A stretch of DNA of 64,000 nucleotides, filler included, from an uncultured Myxococcia bacterium (GTDB lineage: Bacteria > CAZTWC01), in assembly GCA_964617105.1 (NCBI GenBank). It is 6 parts of 6 records of this genome, joined end to end, with 100 filler letters (N's around TTAATTAATTAA, not from the genome) between each part and the next. Parts side by side here need not be neighbours in the genome. Positions count along the whole stretch, not along the records: positions 46,600 to 57,677 come from CAZTWC010000105.1; 5 more parts are not named here. One strand, 5' to 3'. This document shows, one piece after another, positions 2,642-64,000 of the stretch (the stretch's first letter is position 1; each line of letters opens with the position of its first letter). Both the position numbers and the translations under genes were made by a program. The notes below the pieces were generated by a model. It made no database searches and was not told where the DNA came from. It was given only the letters and a program-made list of their open reading frames with translations.

Positions 2642-3713
2642 CTAAAGATTTTTTAGTTCTCTGCAGGCTATCTCGGCCGCCTGACTCCACTGCCAATTTC
2701 TTTTTATATGTTGGGCCGCCGCCGCCCCTTTTTCTTTGGCATTTGATTGGTTATCAAAGACGTATCGCAGGTTTTGGGCGATTTCATCTATATCCAGAGA
2801 TGCCCACAGGCCGGTTTCGCCGGGATTGGGAAAAAAAATTGGGCAATAGATGGGTTCTAGTTTTTTGGGCTGCATCAAGTAAGCGATATCATGGTTTAAA
2901 AATTCGGTGGACCCGCTGTGAAATACTGCGATAGTGGGTAGGCCGCAGGATAGAGCCTCAATCAAAGGCAGCCCCCAACCCTCGGAGCGGCTGGCGCTTA
3001 CATAGCAGTCACAGGAGGCGAACAGCCTGGGCATCATGGCATCAGACAGTTCCCGTTCAAAAAAGATAAATTGATGGGCGTGGGAGGGAAACTCTGCACA
3101 TAGAGTGGCTTGAACATCTATCTTTTTCAATTTGGGGCTGACCGCATTGAGATGAAAAACCATCTCCACCTTCTCCTGGGGCGAGAAAGCCTGGCAAAAG
3201 GCGGCAGCCATCTCCCGCACCCCTTTGCGGGCTTCGAACTTTCCTATGGTGAGGAAGCGGAACTTGCCTTCGTCTTTAAAGGCGGGCAGAGGTTTGGCGG
3301 TAGGAGCAAACAAATAGGAATCCACCCCCTCTGGCACCACCCTGATCATTTCGCCGGCAATACCATTTTGTCTTAACACTTCAGCACCCCACTCACTGGG
3401 CACCCAGACCTGATTTAACTGCTTTAGCAGGTGTATCCACCTGGGCGGCAGGATAGTGGATTCAAACACGGTAAAACCGATTCGCCACCCACCGCAGAAA
3501 CGATGCATATCATCGCCATAGGCGATATTTANNNNNNNNNNCCACCCGCTCGGTCATTTGGCGAAATGGAGAGGGGAGGGGGATGTTGCTCATGGGAAAT
3601 AGAGGTACCAGACAGACTGGAACCAGTTTGTTCAGGGCCAGGAAAAAGTTGCGAGTGTGGGCAGCATAACCGGAATTGCCGTAAACATTGCCAAAGCCGT
3701 TGATTATGTTCAT
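2642..3713 (-). CDS. Glycosyltransferase family 4 (one gene split by the N gap at 3532-3541)
   Basis: N-terminal SGYAAHTR, then VPEGVD, RKG and SRSEGWGLPLIEALSCGLP (EX7E motif). Confidence 0.85.
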
Positions 3714-5599: not shown

Positions 5600-5700
5600 G
5601 GAGGTACTTCCGTGGCTGGTGCGCGGCCTGGACTTCAAATCCAGTCGAGGGTTTTGTTCAGCAAGGTCCTGGCGGGTTCGATTCCCGTGTGCCTCCGCCA
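5600..5700 (+). tRNA. selC: tRNA-Sec (anticodon UCA)
   Basis: 8-bp acceptor stem GGAGGUAC/GUGCCUCC followed by GCCA; long D stem with UGGU loop; anticodon loop CUUCAAA (TCA at 5635-5637); long variable arm; 5-bp T stem with UUCGAUU loop. This is the bacterial 8/5 Sec fold. Confidence 0.95.
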
Positions 5701-5702
5701 AT

Positions 5703-6779
5703 TTATTCCGGCAAAATCAGCATGGCATCGCCATATGAGTAGAAGCGGTAGCCTTGTTCAATGGCCTGCTGATAGGCTTTTAGCAGAAATTCCCGTCCAG
5801 TCAGAGCCGACACTAAAAGGAGCAAGGTAGAGCCGGGCAGATGAAAATTGGTAAGCATGGCATCAACGGCTTTAAAATGGTATCCCGGGTAGATAAACAG
5901 CGATGTTTCCCCGTGACCGGCTTGTAGAGATTTTGTGCTCTCCTGCCAGCAACTCTCCAACACCCGCACCGAAGTGGTGCCCACCGCTAAAATACCGCTT
6001 TTTTCCTGGCGGCTTTGCTGGATGGTTCGGGCGGTTTTTTCTTCCAGCCAGTACCTTTCGCTGTGCATCTGGTGCTCCCTGATATCATTGCTGCGGATTG
6101 GTAAAAAAGTGCCAGGCCCTACGTGCAGGGTAACAAAACTGATTCCGTCCTCAGTTTCTAATTGTTTTAATAATTCTGGAGTGAAATGGAATCCAGCCGT
6201 GGGAGCGGCCACCGAACCTTCCTCCCTGGCGTACACTGTCTGGTAGGTTTGCCGGTGGTTTACATCCAGAGGATTTTCGCGGATATATGGAGGCAAAGGA
6301 ACAGCGCCAACATTTTCAAGGACCTGGCGCCAGTCCGTAAAGGTTTTAGAAAATTTTATCTGCAAATCATAGTGCCCCCCGCCTCGATTGGTCTGGATCA
6401 CAAACTGAACACCAGGGGCAATGTCGATGTTCTCTTTCGGCTTCAAAGGGCGGGAACTTTTGGCCATTGCTTGCCATATCTCCTCAACCATTTTAATTTG
6501 GCCAAGCCGTCTGGTGAGCAAAAATTCCACTCGGCCACCGGTGGCTCTGCGGCCAAAAACTTTTACAGGAATCACTTTGCTGTTATTGAAAACGCAGTGA
6601 TACCTTCCACCCAAAATAGCCGGCAGATCTTTTACCTGAAAGTGTTCAATAGTTTTTTGCTTCAACTTAAGCAGCAACAATTTGGCTTTCTCCCGATGCA
6701 TTAGTGGTTTTTGAGCAATAGAATGAGTGGGGAGATGGTATTGGTAATCGGAACAATTGTATGAGAATTGGTCTATCAT
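5703..6779 (-). CDS. queA: S-adenosylmethionine:tRNA ribosyltransferase-isomerase
   Basis: VPLPPYI, YQTVYA, GSVAAPTAGFHFT, LHVGPGTF, TNFHLP and YRFYSYGDAM motifs. Confidence 0.97.
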   Translation of the reverse strand: MIDQFSYNCSDYQYHLPTHSIAQKPLMHREKAKLLLLKLKQKTIEHFQVKDLPAILGGRYHCVFNNSKVIPVKVFGRRATGGRVEFLLTRRLGQIKMVEEIWQAMAKSSRPLKPKENIDIAPGVQFVIQTNRGGGHYDLQIKFSKTFTDWRQVLENVGAVPLPPYIRENPLDVNHRQTYQTVYAREEGSVAAPTAGFHFTPELLKQLETEDGISFVTLHVGPGTFLPIRSNDIREHQMHSERYWLEEKTARTIQQSRQEKSGILAVGTTSVRVLESCWQESTKSLQAGHGETSLFIYPGYHFKAVDAMLTNFHLPGSTLLLLVSALTGREFLLKAYQQAIEQGYRFYSYGDAMLILPE

Positions 6780-11991: not shown

Positions 11992-12091
11992 NNNNNNNNN
12001 NNNNNNNNNNNNNNNNNNNNNNNNNNNNNNNNNNNTTAATTAATTAANNNNNNNNNNNNNNNNNNNNNNNNNNNNNNNNNNNNNNNNNNNN
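11992..12091. other. Artificial contig linker (N run plus TTAATTAATTAA)
   Basis: 100-nt N block with a central all-frame stop linker. Confidence 0.98.
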
Positions 12092-22059: not shown

Positions 22060-22695
22060 ATGAAGTTTGAACTCAGAGCCTATATGTTTATCGATAGTTT
22101 GCAGCCCCAGTTAGCTCAATTTATTGCCAAGGACAATAAGGTTTACGATCCCAGTGAATATGATGCCTGTATGATGTTGGAGTTGGCGCCGGCTATGGAG
22201 ATCCACAGTATGATCGACAGCGCGCTTAAATCTACCGGGGTAAGACTGGGAGTGGTTGTAACCGAAAGACATTTCGGTATGATGATGGTGCATCATCCCG
22301 ATCAGGGCGAGGTGCGCACCTCGGCCGAACGGGTATTTGACAGCACCGGCCTTTCGGTGGGGGTTCGGGCACCCATAACTATATTGACCAACAAAATTAT
22401 TCGCAGTGTAGAGCAAGATCACGCCATATTTTTTACCGGCACTGCCAAGGGAAATATGGTTGTATCCGGAGATTCAGTGTTGATTTTGGAAACCACGCCA
22501 GCGGCTTATTTGACCATTGCCTGTAACGAGGCCTTGAAAGCAGCCACTGTCAAATTGATTACCATTAAACCATTTGGCGCTACCGGCCGTCTGGTGATGA
22601 GCGGCCCCGAATCGGAGATAGATTCTGCTGCCGAAGCGGCTCTGAGTATCATGGAGCAGTTAAACCAGGAGACAGCCAGTCTAGCCAGCGACTAA
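22060..22695 (+). CDS. Bacterial microcompartment shell protein, tandem-domain (BMC-T, CsoS1D/CcmP-like)
   Basis: ELRAYMFIDSLQPQLA, LELAPAMEI, ERHFG, ILETTPAAY...NEALKAA and FGATGRLVMSG motifs. Confidence 0.88.
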   Translation: MKFELRAYMFIDSLQPQLAQFIAKDNKVYDPSEYDACMMLELAPAMEIHSMIDSALKSTGVRLGVVVTERHFGMMMVHHPDQGEVRTSAERVFDSTGLSVGVRAPITILTNKIIRSVEQDHAIFFTGTAKGNMVVSGDSVLILETTPAAYLTIACNEALKAATVKLITIKPFGATGRLVMSGPESEIDSAAEAALSIMEQLNQETASLASD

Positions 22696-23986: not shown

Positions 23987-24086
23987 NNNNNNNNNNNNNN
24001 NNNNNNNNNNNNNNNNNNNNNNNNNNNNNNTTAATTAATTAANNNNNNNNNNNNNNNNNNNNNNNNNNNNNNNNNNNNNNNNNNNN
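23987..24086. other. Artificial contig linker
   Basis: N block with TTAATTAATTAA. Confidence 0.98.
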
Positions 24087-26792: not shown

Positions 26793-28172
26793 CTAAGGGC
26801 CAGGTTTAATGAAAATTACGGCCTGCTCCACTCTTTCCACGGATCCGTCCAATGGAGCATGGATATTGGCGCCCAACTGCCCTTTGGCTATTTGGGCGAT
26901 TAGTTGACCAGCCTGCACTCTCTGGCCCGGTTTGACCAGCGGGAGAGCCGGGGCGCCCAGGTGCTGTTTTAGTTTTATTCCTAATTGCGGTGCCACCATG
27001 GGGTGTTCTATTGTTGCCAATTTTTGGTCATATTTTTTCACTCCCACCCGCCGGGTCATATTGGCAGCATCTACTTTGCGAGGTTCTTTAACTGGATGGA
27101 CATCCCGGGGAGCCTGGCGAAGGGGATTATTTATTTTATGGTCAGACAAACTTTGGCGCAGGTGTTGAAACAAGGCTCTGGGAGACAAGCCGCAGGGGCA
27201 GGCGTAGAATTCACATACACCGCAAAAGCAGCATAAAAAAGATGCCAGAATCGCCTGATCATGGTCATCTCTTTCGTATGCCATGGCCCTCATAACTGTG
27301 TGAGGTTCTATCCGGTGCCCTAGCAAAAAACGGGGACAAAGATCGGTACACAGTCGGCAGCCATCACAACTGGACCGGGCCCGTTTCAGTTGATCCACCG
27401 GACTCAATCGCTTTATTTTAACGGCATGGTGCTCTTCGGGTAGGACAATTACCCCGCTGGTGGTTTTACTTACATAGTCTTCTCTGCCGTCCTGGCCGGC
27501 TATCTGCCCCATCACCGGCCCGCCGTTCAGAGCAGTCCAGTTTTCCTTTTTACTGCCGCCGCACAGAGAAATCAGGTGGCTGAAAGGGGTGCCTAAAGGA
27601 GTGTTTATGATAGCCGGTTTCTCCACTTCACCGTGAACAGTTACCAATTTATGAGTTACCGGTTTATCTTTAAGAGCATCAGCCACTTGAGAGAGGGTGG
27701 TGACATTTTGAACCAATACGCCAACATCCAGGGGAATACCGCCCTCGGGAACGATTTTTTGGCAGGCCTCATACACTAATATCTGTTCATCGCCGGCCGG
27801 ATAGTAGTTGCCAACTTTTAGGATTGACAGTTGCGGATGTCCACAAATTGCCTGGTTTAAGGCCTCCCCCGCTCTCTGATAGTAATCTTTGATAGCGATA
27901 ATTCCTTTTTGAGCTCCAGATGCCACCATTACCGCTGCCAGGCCAATCACCACATCTTTGGCCCGTTGTTCCATCAAGAGTCGATCACTGCTAAGCAAGG
28001 GTTCGCATTCGGTGCCGTTAGCAATCACCAGGTCAACCAGGCTGTTTATCTTGACATGAGTGGGAAATCCGGCTCCGCCAGCCCCCACTATTCCAGCCGC
28101 TTTTACCTTTTCTACCAGGGTTTTTCTAACCTGGGCGCGGTTAATTCCGCTTTGCCCAAAAGTGTTATCCAA
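26793..28172 (-). CDS. PduS/RnfC-like flavin and 4Fe-4S protein (SLBB domain)
   Basis: GIVGAGGAGFPTHVK, NGTECEPLL, YPAGDEQ, two Cys clusters (CDGCRLCTDLCP; CCFCGVCEFYACP) and a C-terminal LKQHLGAP...IHAPLDG barrel, the PduS domain order. Confidence 0.85.
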   Translation of the reverse strand: MDNTFGQSGINRAQVRKTLVEKVKAAGIVGAGGAGFPTHVKINSLVDLVIANGTECEPLLSSDRLLMEQRAKDVVIGLAAVMVASGAQKGIIAIKDYYQRAGEALNQAICGHPQLSILKVGNYYPAGDEQILVYEACQKIVPEGGIPLDVGVLVQNVTTLSQVADALKDKPVTHKLVTVHGEVEKPAIINTPLGTPFSHLISLCGGSKKENWTALNGGPVMGQIAGQDGREDYVSKTTSGVIVLPEEHHAVKIKRLSPVDQLKRARSSCDGCRLCTDLCPRFLLGHRIEPHTVMRAMAYERDDHDQAILASFLCCFCGVCEFYACPCGLSPRALFQHLRQSLSDHKINNPLRQAPRDVHPVKEPRKVDAANMTRRVGVKKYDQKLATIEHPMVAPQLGIKLKQHLGAPALPLVKPGQRVQAGQLIAQIAKGQLGANIHAPLDGSVERVEQAVIFIKPGP

Positions 28173-46499: not shown

Positions 46500-46599
46500 N
46501 NNNNNNNNNNNNNNNNNNNNNNNNNNNNNNNNNNNNNNNNNNNTTAATTAATTAANNNNNNNNNNNNNNNNNNNNNNNNNNNNNNNNNNNNNNNNNNNN
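46500..46599. other. Artificial contig linker
   Basis: N block with TTAATTAATTAA. Confidence 0.98.
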
Positions 46600-48541
46600 C
46601 ATCCCGGTAGGGCCGATCGGTAGTCATGGCGTCAAAAGCATCTGCCACCGACAATATCCGGGCTATCAGGGGAATATCCTCTCCCTGCAAGCCGGCTGGA
46701 TAACCAAAACCGTCATAACGCTCATGATGGTGCAGTATAGAAGCCACAATAGAATCTAAAAATTTAATATGCCCGAGGATATAGTCACCCTGGTTAGGGT
46801 GGGTCTTGATAATCTTCATATCTGCCTCAGACAGTTTCTCCCGCTTATGCAAAACCATATCACTTATGCCGATTTTACCAATATCGTGTAAAAGACCGGC
46901 TTGATTTATCAACTCTCTTTTTTCCCGGGAGAGCCCCATCTCATCGGCAATATGAAGAGAATAATGCGTCACCCTCTCGGAATGACCTTTGGTATAAGAA
47001 TCGCGTGCTTCCAAAGCCTGGGCTAGTGATTTGATGGTTTCTACATAGACCCGGTTGGTCTTGACCAACAGCCGGGCATTATCGATGGCAATAGCAGCCT
47101 GCATGGCAAAGATGGAAAAAACCTCCATTGTATCCTGGTCAAAGGCATTGGCCCGGGGACTTTCCGCATCGATTACCCCAATCACTTTTCCCCTGGCCTT
47201 GAGTGGAACGGTCATTTCACTCCTGCCGCCAATGGTGCCGCGGATATAGTAACTGCATTTAGTCACATCATTTACTAAAAGTGGTTGACCGCTCTCCGCC
47301 ACCTTACCGGTTATCCCCTGCCCCAACTTAATTTTTACCTGGTCTTTCAATTCCGGCGGATAACCTCTAGAGGCTTTGACCACCAGCTGCTCTTCGTGGT
47401 CCAAAAACATGATAGCGCAAGCATCCAGGTTGAGAGCAGTGGAGGATAGATCCAAAATGTCCTGAAGGGTGACTTCAATATCAAAACTAATACCCAGCCG
47501 GTCGCCAACTGCATAAAGCATTTTCATTTGTTCGATTTTGTCTTCCAGTTGTCCGGCGTGATATTCTATACGGGCATAGGTTCTGGCATTTCTAATGGCA
47601 TGAGATACCTGGTACCCAAAAGTGGCAAAGAGTTGCAGATCCTCCGCGTTAAAGGCAAAAGGACGACTGTGCTCTGCATCCAGGACCCCGATCACCTTTT
47701 GTTCTATAGCAATGGGCACCGCCATTTCACAACCGCCCCCATCACTGGCGGAAATATAATCCTTATCCCGGTTGACATCTTCAATTAAAGTCGGCTCTCC
47801 CCGGCTGACGGTCCTGCCACTGATCCCCTGGCCCACCGCTATTTTTAGGTTTTTTACCTTGGCTGGGCTATAACCGTAGTGAGCCTTGATAAATAGTTTT
47901 TCGTCCTGATCCTTAAGCAGAATAGCGCACCGTTCAAAACAGAGACACTGGTGGGCCAATTTTAAAATCTCCTCCAGAAGATCATCCTCCCGCAAATTCA
48001 AAGTCATTTTACAACTTATCCTGTTGAGGCTCTCCTGTTCCCGTATCTTCTTATTCAACCTTTCAAACAGGTTAGCATTGCTAAGGGCTATGGCTGCCTG
48101 TGCGGCAAAAATGGAAAAGAATTCCATCATCTCATTATTAAAAGGGATATGGCTTTCAGCATCAATAACCCCTATCACTTCGCCATTTAACTTAAGCGGA
48201 GCCGCCATCTCCGAAATGGCCCCTTCAACCCCAGGAATATAACGCCGGTCCTTTTTTACATCATTGACAAACATGGGTTTTCCGTTTTGGAAAACATGAC
48301 CAGTTATTCCCTCGCCCCTGACTATTTTGATCCTATCCACCACCTCCTGCTTATATCCTCTGGCTTTGCGGATAGTCATAGTATCCCTGTCTTCCTCCAG
48401 GGTTAAAATAGCACACCGTTTGAGCGAAAAGACATCTTCTACCAGGGATAGTATTTTATCCAACACCTCTTCCCGGCCATGCAACGAGTTCATCACCCGG
48501 CAGGCTTCGATGATTTTTGCCAATTTTGATTCGTTATCCAT
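46600..48541 (-). CDS. Triple-GAF plus HD-GYP phosphodiesterase (3' truncated)
   Basis: Three GAF repeats (G.GI.G.V...P.LV.DV..D..YI...EMA.P...IGV.DAE); HSERV, LHDIGK, HHERYDGFGYP and DAFDAMTTDRPYR. Confidence 0.93.
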
Positions 48542-48567: not shown

Positions 48568-49755
48568 CTACAGATCACATTTTACTTTATTCCCAGCCAT
48601 AGCCGCTTTGGTCTTATCAACCCAGGTTTTTACCGTGGGATCATCTTTCAGATTATCGCCCAATTGGAGGAAGTCAAAACGAAAACAATTGCTGTTCACA
48701 TAACGGTCCACTTCACCCTGCAGAGAACGTATTTTGGCCTTTAGAGCAGCAGTCTCCTCAGAATATACAGATTGATTTTTTCTCCGGCTGGTAATCTTCT
48801 GCAGATCTATTTTATGCATTAACAGAGCATCACGGTATTTCCTGGAACTGTAATAGTTTAAAAAACCTTGTCCCTTTTTCTTCAGGCGCAAATCCAAAAC
48901 CGCCATATATTTACCCAGGCTGCCAGCGCCAACAATCATAGTTTTTCCCTCTATCCTGGGTTGAAAAAAGTAGCGCCGGTCATGGGAGGTAAAGATGATA
49001 TCGATTCCCTTTATCTGCCTGGCCAGTTTTAAGTCATTATCAAAGCCCAGGTGGCTGATTACCACAATAAAATCACTCCTGGTTTTTAGTTTTTCTACCT
49101 GTTTTCGGGCTGTATCAAAAGGGTCTTGAACAACAATCCCTTTAACGCCTAAATAATAATCGGGATTTACCAAACCCAATATTGCCAGTTTATGGGAACC
49201 CACCTTTTTTATCATCACTCTCTTCAGGGCAATTTTACTACCACTTTGATCGATAAGGTTGGTACCTATAACCGGAAGAGCATACTGGTCCTGCAACTTC
49301 TTGATAAACCCCCTACCCAGGGCAAAATCGATTTCACCCGGGAGCAAAGCGTCAACTTTAAAGTGGCGGTAGGTCCGGGCAAATACCCGAGCCTTAAGAC
49401 ATGCAGACCATTGCTCATTTTTATCAATGTTTCGGTGGGAAAAAAAGAGATCACCACCGTCAAAATATAGTAGCGGAACTTTTTTATTGTGCATCTCTTT
49501 CATCAATTTAGCCCGCTTGGCCAGACCGCCAAGCCTGTTGGCCGGTCACCCGCATGGATCTAATTCTCCATTTACATCAGAGGTATAAACTATTCGGATA
49601 TCTCCCTGAAAATCATCGGCAGCCCAAATCAAAGATGGAGCCCTCAGAGTCGTCAAAATAACTAATAAGAACAGTGTCCAGCCAGAAATCAACCTGGTCA
49701 CAAAAATTTGGATACTAACCAAATCAGTTTGGAAATCACTGATTTTTTTTATCAC
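48568..49755 (-). CDS. Exported UshA-like (metallophosphoesterase fold) selenoprotein, Sec at TGA 49546-49548
   Basis: The 49546..49755 and 48568..49506 ORFs are in frame and separated only by TGA plus 13 sense codons: ...YTSDVNGELDPCG-U-PANRLGGLAKRA...FDGGDLF...GEID...SHLG...SHD. A SECIS-like hairpin follows and the genome has selC. Confidence 0.88.
49515..49534 (-). promoter_or_regulatory. Putative bacterial SECIS element
   Basis: mRNA reads UGA, 11 nt, then GCUUGGC-GGUCUG-GCCAAGC (perfect 7-bp stem, G-starting loop). Confidence 0.75.
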
Positions 49756-50240
49756 AATTTCTCCAATCTCTCTTTTAAACTCCCTATCTCTTTGATGCGA
49801 AGACCAAAATTATCATTGGTGACCACCGCTTCTCCCCGGGCAACCTCCACATTGTTAACCATAAAAGAGAGGTAGGAATTGGCATCTCGGTCCAACTGGA
49901 TGGTTTTACCCTGGCTTAACCGCAAAATCTCGTATACTGCCATCCTGGTACGACCCATCTCCACCGCCACATCCAAATCTATGTTGAGCAAAACTTTCAA
50001 CTCCCTGGGATAATCCTTTTTTCCGCTACTTACTGGTCTGGCGGTTTCTTCCTGGACCAGTTCACCGAACTCATCCATATCCACGCCAGAGTCCATGGAC
50101 AACTGTTGCTCCCATTCTGCCGCCAAAGCATCCTGGTCAACGTCATCTTCCTTTTTCTCCGGTTCCGGGATTTCAATATCGCCATCTTTTAAAGCTGAAA
50201 ATAGAGCATCTAACTCTTCTTGTTGTAATATATCGCTCAT
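49752..50240 (-). CDS. fliN: FliN/FliM-C (SpoA) family switch protein with N-terminal CheY-binding-like peptide
   Basis: MSDILQQEELDALF N-terminus; LDVAVEMGRT...ARGEAVVTNDNFGLRI. ATG at 50240 preferred. Confidence 0.8.
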   Translation of the reverse strand: MSDILQQEELDALFSALKDGDIEIPEPEKKEDDVDQDALAAEWEQQLSMDSGVDMDEFGELVQEETARPVSSGKKDYPRELKVLLNIDLDVAVEMGRTRMAVYEILRLSQGKTIQLDRDANSYLSFMVNNVEVARGEAVVTNDNFGLRIKEIGSLKERLEKL

Positions 50241-50430
50241 TAGTTCCTCTGGGTAGTTGCCGTCAAAATTCCCAATACGAAGTGATTTCCCGAACGGCAA
50301 CTCTGGTTGGATTGAAACAAAGCTATTTGTAAATTTATCACAAAGATAGGCGGATAGCAACTTTTCACGCCACTTGCTAACATCATAAAATTATGCCATA
50401 CTTACACCTTAAAATTCAGGAGGAGATATC

Positions 50431-52307: not shown

Positions 52308-53057
52308 CTATATCAACTTTTTCAAAATGTTTAAATATTCCTTGTGGCTTTCATAAACCATATTGGAGATAAAATTAATAAAAGGTTTACTGTCCTTTCC
52401 ATGGGAAATCTCAAGATTCTGGATATAATCCTGCCTCATTATCGGAGGGATAATCGTTATCACATAGTCATCCTGCATCAGCGACAAGTTCATTAATAAT
52501 CTTGCCACCCGGCCATTACCGTCAATAAATGGATGGATCTCGACAAACTCTTTGTGCAAAAGTGCGACAAACTCAACCGGATGATATTTACTTCGCATAT
52601 CAGGAATCTTTTCTAAAAACGACTCCATTAAAGAGGGTACTTTATCGTGATAAGGAAAGGTATATTTTGACCCGGATACGATTATGTTGACCTTTCTATA
52701 TTTGCCAGCATTATCCTTATCAATCCGGTAAAAAAACAACCTGTGAAAATCAAGGATATGCCCCTCAATAATCTGATCTCCTTTGGCAATATCATAAAGA
52801 AGGTCATAGGCTTCGCTGTGCCCCACTACCTCCTGATGCTCCTTAATGGTTTTACCACCTATGGTCAAACCATCCTCAAGAATAATTTTGGTCTCCACCT
52901 CAGATAAAGTATTTCCCTCAATAGCGTTTGAAGAATAGGTAAGACCCACCCGGAAATACTCTTTTATCTGCTTTAAATAATATTTATCCAAAGGACGATA
53001 CTGTTTAATCTCTTCTAAAAGCCTGTCAATATCTTTTATTCTGTTTGAAAATTTCAT
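52308..53057 (-). CDS. Fic family AMPylase with N-terminal inhibitory motif
   Basis: HPFIDGNGRVAR catalytic motif and SNAIEGN inhibitory motif. Confidence 0.93.
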   Translation of the reverse strand: MKFSNRIKDIDRLLEEIKQYRPLDKYYLKQIKEYFRVGLTYSSNAIEGNTLSEVETKIILEDGLTIGGKTIKEHQEVVGHSEAYDLLYDIAKGDQIIEGHILDFHRLFFYRIDKDNAGKYRKVNIIVSGSKYTFPYHDKVPSLMESFLEKIPDMRSKYHPVEFVALLHKEFVEIHPFIDGNGRVARLLMNLSLMQDDYVITIIPPIMRQDYIQNLEISHGKDSKPFINFISNMVYESHKEYLNILKKLI

Positions 53058-53129
53058 TTTTTATGTCTTTGTAATTGTTGCAATTCTATGCACTACCGTC
53101 CGGCAAACTTTTTGCAGTGCCGGATAAAT

Positions 53130-53245
53130 AAAACTAGCTGAAACCCTCCGAAAATGCTAAATTATTAGCATAACTTATCAAGATTATGGAGGATTTCAGG
53201 ATGGCCTATAATAACACAATTTTTGGACAAATGTTACCATTAATC
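53130..53245 (+). mobile_element. Possible IS4-family left-end remnant
   Basis: ATG 53201 with a GGAGG SD gives MAYNNTIFGQML, resembling the N-terminus of DUF4372-type IS4 transposases; similarity stops after about 15 codons. Confidence 0.35.
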
Positions 53246-53642
53246 AAACAGAGCATTTCGACATGTGGCAAATTTCAACCTCGAAGCCAACCCGGGCGCA
53301 CCCCCCATCTAAATGGCCGCTACCAGGGAACCGCCTGGGAAGGAATGCAAATTGCTAAACTAAGTCAAGATTGGATGGCAACTATTGACTACTATTGGGG
53401 TTCTGAACAAGATTGGCTCTGGTAATTGCGATTTTCCATAGCAGCCGGCAAGCAGAAAATCCAATTGCCCTTTGGGATACTGGACTTACCAAAGGCTGAT
53501 TGAATATATCGCCAAAGTCTTTTCAACCGCTATATGGGCTTTACCTGTGGGGTGCTGGTGAGTTGGTTAACCCCCTCCCCGCCATTTCAAGTTGCCTTAA
53601 TGGTTTTGATTTGATATTATTCCGTATTGGTGGTTATAAAGT

Positions 53643-53795
53643 TTAACCTATTAAATTCCAGGTGCCCGGCACTTTAATATAATCTTTTGGGGCCATGTAT
53701 TTATCTGGATTGGCGGCAAACTCCTCCGGATCAATCAACTTTTTCCAGAAAAATCTCCATTGGCCGTTTAGTTTTAGCGGCCCGTGTTTCTCGAA
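53643..53795 (-). pseudogene. Headless fragment of a 7TM-DISM/sugar-binding-type sensor N-terminal domain
   Basis: FEKHGPLKLNGQWRFFWKKLIDP...IKVPGTWN then stop; no start codon, and the upstream sequence is the res-like region. Confidence 0.55.
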
Positions 53796-53863
53796 AATAG
53801 TTCTTGAAATTAAATTCTCAATTGGTTATAATATCAATGAGTTTTGAGAAAGGAAGGAGTCCC

Positions 53864-54154
53864 ATGCAACCATCCATTGCTCTTGACCTAAAAAGAAGTG
53901 CAATACGTGAATCGGCGAGCCGTTTTCGCGTGGCGAACCCGCGCATCTTTGGCTCAGTGTTACACGGCACCGATAAAGAAGGCAGCGATCTAGACCTGCT
54001 GGTCGATGCGCTACCTGGCGCTACGCTATTTGATTTGGGTGGTCTGCAAGATGAGTTGGAAACGCTGCTCGGAGTACAAGTCGTTTTGCTGACGCCAGCC
54101 GACCTGCCGCCGAAGTTCCGGTCCAAGGTACTCGCGGAGGCGCAACCAGTATGA
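53864..54154 (+). CDS. mntA: Minimal nucleotidyltransferase antitoxin (MNT)
   Basis: GSVLHGTDKEGSDLD (GSX10DXD); SD AAGGAG before ATG 53864. Confidence 0.9.
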   Translation: MQPSIALDLKRSAIRESASRFRVANPRIFGSVLHGTDKEGSDLDLLVDALPGATLFDLGGLQDELETLLGVQVVLLTPADLPPKFRSKVLAEAQPV

Positions 54155-54519
54155 ACGAAAACCGACTTCCAGATTACCTAGAACACATCCAGAAGGCTGC
54201 AACAGATGCATGTGACTTTGTGGAAGGGTTGACCAAAGACGACTTCTTGGAAGATAAACGTACCCAGCAGGCCGTCATCATGAGCCTCATTATCATTGGC
54301 GAAGCTGCTACGAAGGTGATGGATAGTTACGCCGACTTCACGCAGACCCACCCCAAAGTGCCTTGGCGCAGCATGCGTGGTATGCGCAATCGCATTGCCC
54401 ACGGCTATTTCGATATCAACTTGGACGTGGTGTGGGAAACGGTGCAAACGGCGCTGCCAGAACTGCTGAAGCAATTGTCCCCCGTGCGCCTTGATGCTCA
54501 CAACGAAGACAGGCACTAA
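54151..54519 (+). CDS. hepT: HEPN (DUF86) RNase toxin
   Basis: IIGEAA and RNRIAHGY (RX4HXY) motifs; ATGA overlap with the MNT gene. Confidence 0.9.
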   Translation: MNENRLPDYLEHIQKAATDACDFVEGLTKDDFLEDKRTQQAVIMSLIIIGEAATKVMDSYADFTQTHPKVPWRSMRGMRNRIAHGYFDINLDVVWETVQTALPELLKQLSPVRLDAHNEDRH

Positions 54520-54574
54520 ACTAACCCCCCCCCCAAGCGATGCAGGAACATATTGACAGGGAGAGAGACAAGTC

Positions 54575-55132
54575 ATGCTGATCGGTTACGCGCGCGTCTC
54601 GACGCAGGATCAGAAAATTGAATTTCAACGGGAAGCCTTAGCCAAGGCTGGTTGTCAGAGGGTCTTTGAGGACAAGGTGAGCGGCACACGGGCCGAGCGT
54701 CTCGGCTTGGCCAAGACACTAGAAATGCTCCGCGAAGGTGACACCTTGGTCGTGTGGAAACTCGACCGGCTGGGGCGTAGCGTCAAGCAATTGGTCGATC
54801 TGGTCGGCGAATTACATAACCAAGGCATCCAGTTCAAAAGCCTCACTGACTCCATCGACACCGGTTCGCCATCGGGTCGGTTCTTCTTCCACGTCATGGC
54901 CAGCCTTGCCGAGATGGAGCGCGAACTGACCATCGAACGTACCCGCGCCGGGCTAAAAGTCGCCCGGCAACTCGGTCGCAAAGGCGGTCGCAAGCGCAAG
55001 ATGACCGAAAGCAAAATCGAATCAGCCAAGAAATTGCTAGCTAGCGGCACCCCCCCCAAGGACGTAGCCAAGAACCTCGGTGTGTCAGTTCCTACTCTGT
55101 ACCGCTGGGTGCCTGCCTCAGCAAACCCTTAG
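54575..55132 (+). CDS. tnpR: Serine recombinase (resolvase/invertase)
   Basis: GYARVST, WKLDRLGRS, ERTRAGL and a C-terminal HTH (GVSVPTLYRW). Confidence 0.93.
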   Translation: MLIGYARVSTQDQKIEFQREALAKAGCQRVFEDKVSGTRAERLGLAKTLEMLREGDTLVVWKLDRLGRSVKQLVDLVGELHNQGIQFKSLTDSIDTGSPSGRFFFHVMASLAEMERELTIERTRAGLKVARQLGRKGGRKRKMTESKIESAKKLLASGTPPKDVAKNLGVSVPTLYRWVPASANP

Positions 55133-63884: not shown

Positions 63885-64000
63885 GTCTGGTAAGCAAGGG
63901 CTGTTACCAGCCCAAGCTCCCATAAGAACTAAGCATGATAGTTTCCCATCACTTAGCTCAAGCCTTTCTTCAGCCCATGTTAAGACCCGGTAATCATTAA
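63885..64000 (-). mobile_element. Group II intron 3' end (domains V and VI), 5' part outside the window
   Basis: Minus strand 63959-63926 is GAGCUAAGUGAUGG-GAAA-CUAUC-AU-GCUUAGUUC (34-nt DV, AGC triad, GNRA loop, AY bulge), followed by a DVI hairpin GGGCUG-GUAA-CAGCCC ending ...UUACCAGAC. Confidence 0.9.

Follow-up and report, generated by a model that had tools for sequence, protein, structure and literature searches.

A TGA-interrupted gene in an uncultured Myxococcia bacterium probably encodes an exported, haem-less selenoprotein of the UshA-like PCGU family

UshA-like proteins with a Cys-x-selenocysteine motif have been known from metagenomic data for some time. The listing in a 2008 paper gives the family as 'COG0737, UshA-like, CxU', with 76 selenocysteine (Sec) and 92 Cys sequences in GOS data (PMC2398784), and the entries on it in reviews of 2022 and 2026 list it with the model NF041198 and give no function (PMC9312934, PMC13188914). 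The family goes without mention in the Sargasso (PMC1088965) and Olavius (PMC1976440) papers, in the Haft preprint and in the BSepDB paper, and no functional study of UshA-like PCGU proteins was found in the literature searched, supplements not being covered. Here we describe a gene at positions 48568..49755 of a 64,000-nucleotide stretch of DNA, filler included, from an uncultured Myxococcia bacterium (assembly GCA_964617105.1; six parts of its records joined end to end, hereafter the window). We consider it probable that this is a single gene for an exported selenoprotein from the UshA-like PCGU family, in its short, haem-less branch, with Cys-Gly-Sec as its proposed working centre. The original prediction, made from the sequence alone, had noted that UshA-like selenoproteins were already described; the family is indeed curated, as NF041198 'UshA_like_PCGU', and is named for its motif.

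On the minus strand, 48568..49755 is one frame of 395 codons plus a stop, and its sole interruption is a TGA at codon 70 (49546..49548). Translation table 11 yields two open reading frames (ORFs) in that same frame, 49546..49755 (69 residues) and 48568..49506 (312 residues). With TGA translated as Sec (U), the product has 395 residues and places U70 in ...SDVNGELDPCG-U-PANRLGGLAKRA...; in the full translation, the surrounding sequence is ...YTSDVNGELDPCG-U-PANRLGGLAKRAKL.... The DNA over the recoding site reads GAT CCA TGC GGG TGA CCG GCC, inside D-P-C-G-U. This agrees, down to the quoted DNA, with the original proposal of two ORFs joined over one TGA into a 395-residue protein. The proposal that an ORF caller had split the gene was also correct. 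In public protein collections each half is an entry of its own, P0002 (308 residues) and P0027 (69 residues), each 100% identical, so the split is real and the gene has been mis-called as two ORFs. The GTG start and the TGA stop of a fliN-like ORF upstream share bases (GTGA). A six-frame scan of the window found no other frame with one internal TGA and long open flanks on both sides. Feature coordinates are given in Table 1.

Table 1. Positions of the predicted selenoprotein gene, its parts and the tRNA-Sec gene in the window.
Feature	Position	Strand	Details
Complete coding sequence of the predicted selenoprotein	48568..49755	-	GTG start, 395 codons + stop, TGA-70 read as Sec; one NF041198 match over residues 50-386
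Cys68-Gly69-Sec70 motif	49546..49554	-	TGC 49552..49554; predicted Sec codon TGA 49546..49548
Shine-Dalgarno-like GGAG	49761..49764	-	5 nucleotides ahead of GTG start 49753..49755; read from sequence
Signal-like N-terminus, residues 1-46	49618..49755	-	basic/polar start, hydrophobic LISGWTLFLLVILTTL, then ...SLIWA/AD; judged by eye
Degenerate metallophosphatase/5'-nucleotidase N-domain, ~residues 50-300	48856..49608	-	keeps D102, E141, H235, H258; N62 and I142 replace His
C-terminal helical hairpin and small strand/helix element, residues 301-395	48571..48855	-	secondary structure from the model; no CXXCH
Bacterial selenocysteine insertion sequence (SECIS) hairpin, predicted	49515..49534	-	5' arm 49528..49534, loop GGUCUG 49522..49527, 3' arm 49515..49521; formed by L-G-G-L-A-K codons
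tRNA-Sec (selC), anticodon TCA, decoding UGA	5600..5700	+	ARAGORN; Rfam RF01852, 64.7 bits vs gathering score 47, E = 6.8e-11

We read TGA-70 as a Sec codon because a hidden Markov model (HMM) match runs across it, relatives have Cys or Sec at this column, the TGA recurs in other genomes and the window holds a tRNA-Sec gene. NCBIfam NF041198 matches residues 50-386 in one piece across the TGA (E = 1.3e-60, model positions 21-378). A whole-library HMMER search returned 7419 relatives at E<=1e-3, which makes the family widespread, and 148 representatives were aligned, namely P0003 and 147 of the 150 best listed matches, without the two pieces of the window protein itself. Among the 130 representatives covering the Sec column, 125 have C, two have W and one each has V, G and Y; two residues upstream, Cys is found in 123 of 134. 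Alignment A4 gives the same picture, with C in 107/109 at column 68 and in 105/109 at column 70, where three have W. These W residues may reflect TGA translated with a different code. Thirteen of the 148 representatives start just past the Sec column, as expected for genes cut at the TGA; one of them, P0148, lies at a tree distance of only 0.0044 from the post-TGA part of the gene at locus L025.

Genome contigs were scanned with a closer alignment (A2), the 16-sequence alignment A1 being without a conserved stretch. The scan found 295 relatives, of which 80 were kept and 32 examined (L001-L020, L022-L032, L036); the other 48 are mostly weaker matches. An in-frame TGA occupies the Sec column in 24 of the 32 loci, nine with E/D-P-C-G-U and 15 with C-[PE]-T-U, while a Cys codon is present in four (L026, L027, L028, L031) and no such motif in another four (L023, L030, L032, L036). 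The records name Thermodesulfobacteriota, 'Deltaproteobacteria', Syntrophorhabdales, Fidelibacterota, Neomarinimicrobiota, Krumholzibacteriota and Myxococcota, and Sec forms of the family occur in several phyla. The original prediction had set this column beforehand as the test on which a C-G-U selenoprotein would stand or fall, and TGA or TGC is present there in 28 of 32 loci.

The tRNA-Sec gene proposed at 5600 was recovered by both ARAGORN and Rfam. It abuts queA (5703..6779, minus), and selA, selB and selD are not adjacent. The best outside match of this QueA in a collection of 5.8 billion clusters is 47-49% identical, and the lineage is poorly sampled.

The TGA could instead be a true stop, or a sequencing error for TGC or TGT, in which case the locus would hold two small genes or a pseudogene, or else encode a normal Cys protein. 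Gene callers do split the locus, a single base separates TGA from TGC or TGT, and the window comes from a draft sequence containing N runs. However, an error or a genuine stop does not sit well with TGA at the same column of 24 loci from independent assemblies, with a SECIS at a fixed distance, with a tRNA-Sec in the same window or with homology that crosses the TGA in one HMM match, and the downstream ORF alone would have neither the signal nor the fold's first strand. We regard this explanation as highly improbable and conclude, from comparison with relatives, that TGA-70 is a predicted Sec codon.

The perfect 7-base-pair hairpin reported 11 nucleotides past the UGA is present as GCUUGGC/GGUCUG/GCCAAGC. 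The consensus for bacterial SECIS elements asks for a loop of 3-9 nucleotides that has G in its two opening positions, a stem of 4-16 base pairs, a UGA-to-loop distance of 16-37 nucleotides and a folding energy of <= -7.5 kcal/mol (PMC13188914, section 5). The window hairpin agrees on every point, with a 7-base-pair stem, a 6-nucleotide loop beginning GG, 18 nucleotides from UGA to loop and -12.2 kcal/mol when folded alone. Folding energy as evidence for the hairpin was nevertheless dropped, as it is not significant against shuffled sequences: an 81-nucleotide stretch has z = -0.36 (75 of 200 shuffles fold as well) and a 49-nucleotide stretch z = -1.48 (15 of 200). Because the energy alone is unexceptional, support for the hairpin is comparative.

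The other 24 Sec genes carry CUGGGC-GGUCUG-GCCCGG or a near variant at the same place, formed by conserved L-G-G-L-A-R codons; across the family the hairpin begins 11-12 nucleotides past the UGA, in LGGLA[KR] codons. When the 25 Sec genes were aligned (A3), 89.1% of 175 cells were paired, compared with 20.6-56.6% when the partner was slid, and double-sided changes were found in three of seven pairs (10 cells). None of 500 shuffles reached the observed percentage paired, the number of double-change cells or the covariation score. The clearest compensation is in the window gene itself, which has CUU...AAG (Leu...Lys) where most others have CUG...CGG (Leu...Arg). In a fixed register, the Sec genes pair 156 of 175 positions and four Cys-form genes, only three of them independent, pair 2-4 of seven each.

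Several of these results speak against the hairpin and so have to be set beside it. In addition to the unexceptional energies and the small Cys-form control, a competing structure is the minimum-energy fold (-17.9 vs -13.8 kcal/mol for the hairpin in context). Two of the five measures on A3 were not above shuffles, namely the number of pairs with a double change (115/500) and further pair types (485/500). The A3 sequences are related to one another. A conserved peptide motif is encoded over the hairpin, and some of the conservation seen is accordingly due to the protein. Taken together, the comparison settles that the predicted SECIS is real, conserved across phyla with compensatory changes. 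It may already appear in the family alignments of selenoproteome-paper supplements; its conservation across phyla from LGGLA[RK] codons is, as presented here, new.

On sequence comparison, the window protein is a divergent, haem-less member of NF041198. It shares with that family the P-C-G-U column, the degenerate N-domain, the SECIS position and a signal peptide (the last judged by eye here), and the expected motif, P-C-G-[U/C] followed by GG[LIV]A[RK]R, is seen as DPCGUPANRLGGLAKRA. Its best outside match among the representatives is <=37% identical. What sets it apart is the C-terminus. Long members of NF041198 carry a four-haem cytochrome c domain at ~380-519 of the 519-position model; these last ~140 positions correspond to the domain seen in P0003 (four CXXCH motifs, PF13435). 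In contrast, the window protein has no CXXCH and its match stops at model position 378. The original prediction had missed this domain, present in typical members and absent here. Exactly four CXXCH occur in 65 of the 148 representatives and none in 78, some of the latter being fragments. Alignment A1 shows that short relatives share the C-terminal element of residues 301-395, which occupies the place of a nucleotide-binding or cytochrome domain, and that long relatives add four CXXCH after it.

Short, haem-less relatives of 375-400 residues, for which there is no curated family, include P0028, P0049 and P0060 (Cys forms), L013 from Fidelibacterota and L018 and L022 (Sec forms). They share the length, architecture, helical hairpin and closing strand/helix element of the window protein, but are only 23-28% identical to it. 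Scores against NF041198 (cutoff 275) separate short and long forms imperfectly. Among Sec-form four-haem genes, L002 (350 bits), L019 (278) and L025 (373) pass and L020 (240) fails, and the four-haem Cys form L027, from Bacteriovorax sp. BSW11_IV, reaches 218 bits. All nine short forms with P-C-G-U or a Cys/W counterpart fall under the cutoff (182-240 bits). Because only one model is curated and short haem-less members score under its cutoff, automatic annotation pipelines will go on overlooking them.

A FastTree phylogeny of 169 rows, which left out P0041, P0066, P0072, P0111, P0143 and domain pieces of <280 residues, places the window protein on a long branch (0.97) within a 27-row clade (support 95) that unites the C-P-T-U Sec clade with short haem-less Cys forms. 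The neighbour closest to the window protein, with weak support, is the four-haem protein P0020. This tree should not be over-read, as it is quick and has many long branches.

The sister clade (L001, L003-L012, L014-L017; for example L004:7956-9125) consists of short haem-less Sec proteins in which C-[PE]-T-U, a CxxU motif, replaces C-G-U. It lies under the cutoffs of both curated models: two C-P-T-U forms score 242 and 222 bits to NF041198, and assignment of the clade to NF049981, 'UshA-like (seleno)protein family 2', was ruled out, since the scores there are 82 and 78 bits and the cutoff is 140. NF049981 is also a distant relative of the window protein, with Sec in the same loop region. It differs in having CxxU where the window protein has CxU, and the window protein scores only 52.2 bits to it.

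An AlphaFold2 model of the window protein was obtained with 114 relatives (pLDDT 91.8, pTM 0.86). Foldseek ranks 5'-nucleotidases and SoxB highest (probability 1.00, TMq up to 0.64): E. coli c4898 (3ive; E = 2.3e-22, TMq 0.64), human CD73, Thermus 2z1a, and SoxB 2wdc and 4uwq. A sequence search of the PDB agrees with these structural matches. The modelled fold is that of a 5'-nucleotidase N-domain, in keeping with the UshA-like fold originally proposed, and the window protein has in common with UshA and the 5'-nucleotidases (COG0737) the N-domain fold, the linker helix and the GD, SHLG and SH motifs. Pfam gave only a weak PF00149 (Metallophos) match (E = 0.02) and did not find the 5'-nucleotidase substrate-binding C-domain PF02872 in the window protein.

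Unlike these enzymes, the window protein is without the catalytic and motif-I His and contains a Cys-x-Sec insert. Alignment to Thermus 2z1a shows D-x-H replaced by D60-V-N62, G-N-H-E by G140-E-I-D143 and G-H-x-H by S-H258-D-R, which bears out the degenerate motifs read earlier as SDVNG for DxHG and GEID for GNHE. These changes are general in the family. The catalytic column has His in none of 114 members (I142 in the window protein), and the motif-I His survives in six of 109. Four ligand positions are largely retained across the 114 members (D102 in 98, E/D141 in 98, H235 in 84, H258 in 87), and all four occur together in 74, the window protein included. Near-invariant positions are G63, C68, C70 (the Sec column), G76, G77, D99, G101, G140, G147, N166 and G285; by this measure Cys68 and Sec70 are among the best conserved residues. 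We conclude that the phosphoesterase machinery has been lost, as both the catalytic and the motif-I His are missing and so is the substrate-binding C-domain. Periplasmic redox or metal handling rather than nucleotidase activity, as first suggested, fits these losses, and the protein would not be a phosphoesterase.

The four retained ligand positions are also what most favours a hydrolytic alternative, in which the fold remains a metal-dependent phosphoesterase or a SoxB-like thiosulfohydrolase acting on D102/E141/H235/H258, and Cys/Sec is a regulatory or structural selenylsulfide like the loop disulfide of eukaryotic 5'-nucleotidases. An alignment with snake-venom 5'-nucleotidase has two Cys in the same loop, which we take to form a disulfide in CD73-type enzymes. 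SoxB (TIGR04486), a periplasmic enzyme of the same fold that performs sulfur chemistry on a Cys-bound substrate, is the best-scoring characterised family after NF041198, and two SoxB structures are among the fold matches. However, the SoxB match covers only residues 74-294 and, at 94 bits, is far under the cutoff of 550, and no sox genes were found among the window ORFs scanned. A hydrolase would also have to work without the catalytic His, in nearly all members without the motif-I His, and without a substrate-binding C-domain, while no metal ligand outside the GD motif is as well conserved as Cys and Sec. Sec in selenoenzymes is associated with catalysis, and its use here would point the same way. 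For these reasons, we find a hydrolase improbable and favour a Cys/Sec redox or soft-metal site as the likeliest function of the protein.

The proposed location of such a site is outside the cytoplasm. The signal-like N-terminus of the original prediction was upheld as far as a hydrophobic stretch visible by eye and a helix modelled at residues 12-36, and the N-termini of relatives are hydrophobic or lipobox-like. Attachment of c-type haem is periplasmic, and nearly half of the representatives have a c-type cytochrome domain; we therefore place the family outside the cytoplasm.

Gene neighbourhoods were scanned at 23 related loci, 14 from the C-P-T-U sister clade and nine with PCGU. In the sister clade, a membrane-anchored SurA_N-thioredoxin adjoins in six loci (L003, L004, L006, L007, L011, L016), DsbD_TM in two and rhodanese in two, with MauE too in L004. 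Arsenic genes adjoin in five of the 14: ACR3 in L003, L004 and L008, ArsC in L007 and L008, and ArsM in L005. In addition, CDF and Usp genes adjoin in two near-identical loci, and an ArsP/SaoE-like permease in one. At the PCGU loci, rhodanese and MauE lie directly upstream in four of nine (L018, L022, L024, L029), and the other five have unrelated neighbours. It should also be noted that these four (L018:7917-9167, L022:1682-2839, L024:7929-9086, L029:6315-7469) are short PCGU Sec proteins of a Neomarinimicrobiota-like lineage with rhodanese and MauE/DoxX upstream, and that a His-rich tail (..HHGH.H) closes the translations of L018 and L022. The patterns fit either a selenylsulfide redox centre or a soft-metal or metalloid site, without deciding between the two.

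One possible specialisation is that Cys-x-Sec deals with periplasmic arsenic or some other soft metal or metalloid, which it would bind, reduce or pass on to efflux, with a phosphate-ester fold re-used for a phosphate analogue. Two phosphatase folds have become arsenate reductases, and C-x-C forms the As(III) site in ArsR. The ACR3, thioredoxin-type ArsC and ArsM genes of the sister clade, its CDF transporters and permease, and the His-rich C-terminal tails would all be accommodated. Against this, no arsenic or metal gene is near the window gene or near five of the nine PCGU loci, several of the loci are close relatives and so not independent, and neighbourhood alone is weak evidence. We consider so specific a role rather unlikely.

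In the mechanism that we propose for the Cys/Sec site, SelB and Sec-tRNA would read the UGA under direction of the hairpin, and the N-terminal signal would export the protein. The working centre would be Cys-Gly-Sec, on the loop after strand 1 and beside the remnant metal site D102/E141/H235/H258. It would serve either for two-electron redox chemistry through a selenylsulfide or for binding a soft metal or metalloid. In relatives this centre appears to be fed by a fused four-haem cytochrome c, or the gene adjoins one for a membrane-anchored thioredoxin. As neither a haem domain nor a thioredoxin is found in the 64 kb of the window, the window protein would have to use an unlinked partner. In a bolder version, the dead nucleotidase scaffold would now serve in the periplasm as a selenol/thiol reductase, or as a carrier, whose substrate is phosphate-like or a soft metalloid (such as arsenate/arsenite, selenite or sulfane sulfur), with its selenylsulfide recharged by whatever electron wire the lineage possesses: the fused four-haem cytochrome, the membrane-anchored thioredoxin with CcdA or, here, an unlinked partner. 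We offer this only tentatively, at a low probability; if true, it would be the third phosphatase fold turned into a metalloid redox enzyme, and the first to use Sec.

A number of observations weigh against reading 48568..49755 as a selenoprotein of this family with a Cys-Gly-Sec working centre. The window protein scores 205.5 bits to NF041198, under the cutoff, and is without the four-haem domain of the long members. None of selA, selB and selD was found among the 51 window ORFs scanned (64 kb only), nor was a thioredoxin, DsbD, rhodanese or cytochrome c. Nothing in the genes around the window gene points to redox or metal functions; they encode a Fic protein, an M24 peptidase and a triple-GAF HD-GYP protein, besides the fliN-like ORF. 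The relatives that supply the neighbourhood signal are <=33-35% identical, and the four rhodanese/MauE loci are one lineage. While these points temper the functional proposal, we still hold an exported Cys-Gly-Sec selenoprotein to be probable. The additions to the known family are modest. They are a divergent member without haem, from a lineage with little sampling, the conserved SECIS, the evident loss of phosphoesterase residues, two alternative architectures for electron input and recurrent thioredoxin and arsenic-gene neighbourhoods in the sister clade. In combination, these additions narrow the function to a short list of testable activities.

The selenoprotein gene is closely flanked on its own strand by the lone fliN-like ORF (49752-50360, minus), whose stop overlaps the selenoprotein start, and by the triple-GAF HD-GYP gene (46544-48541, minus). 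We rejected these two as functional partners, since the arrangement occurs in none of the 23 related loci with scanned flanks.

Several other features of the window were recorded. N runs lie at 1413-1422 and 3532-3541, with pairs of 44-N runs near 11992, 23987, 35278, 46500 and 57678 (approximately every 11.6 kb). These runs cut genes, among them the GAF/HD-GYP ORF (46544..48541) and a MutS-like ORF whose end is at 24034. Near the window end, 63885-63961 (minus) matches the Rfam group II intron family RF00029 with 57 bits. An ORF at 22060-22695 (plus) resembles the tandem-BMC shell protein CcmP (159 bits, under cutoff), and no other microcompartment gene was noticed nearby. At 26793-28172 (minus) is an RnfC/PrdC-like protein whose RnfC_N barrel domain is C-terminal (residues 381-453) instead of N-terminal. 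Finally, 52308-55132 is a mobile-looking patch with a Fic-domain ORF, an MntA/HepT-like toxin-antitoxin pair (53804..54519) and a serine recombinase (54575..55132).

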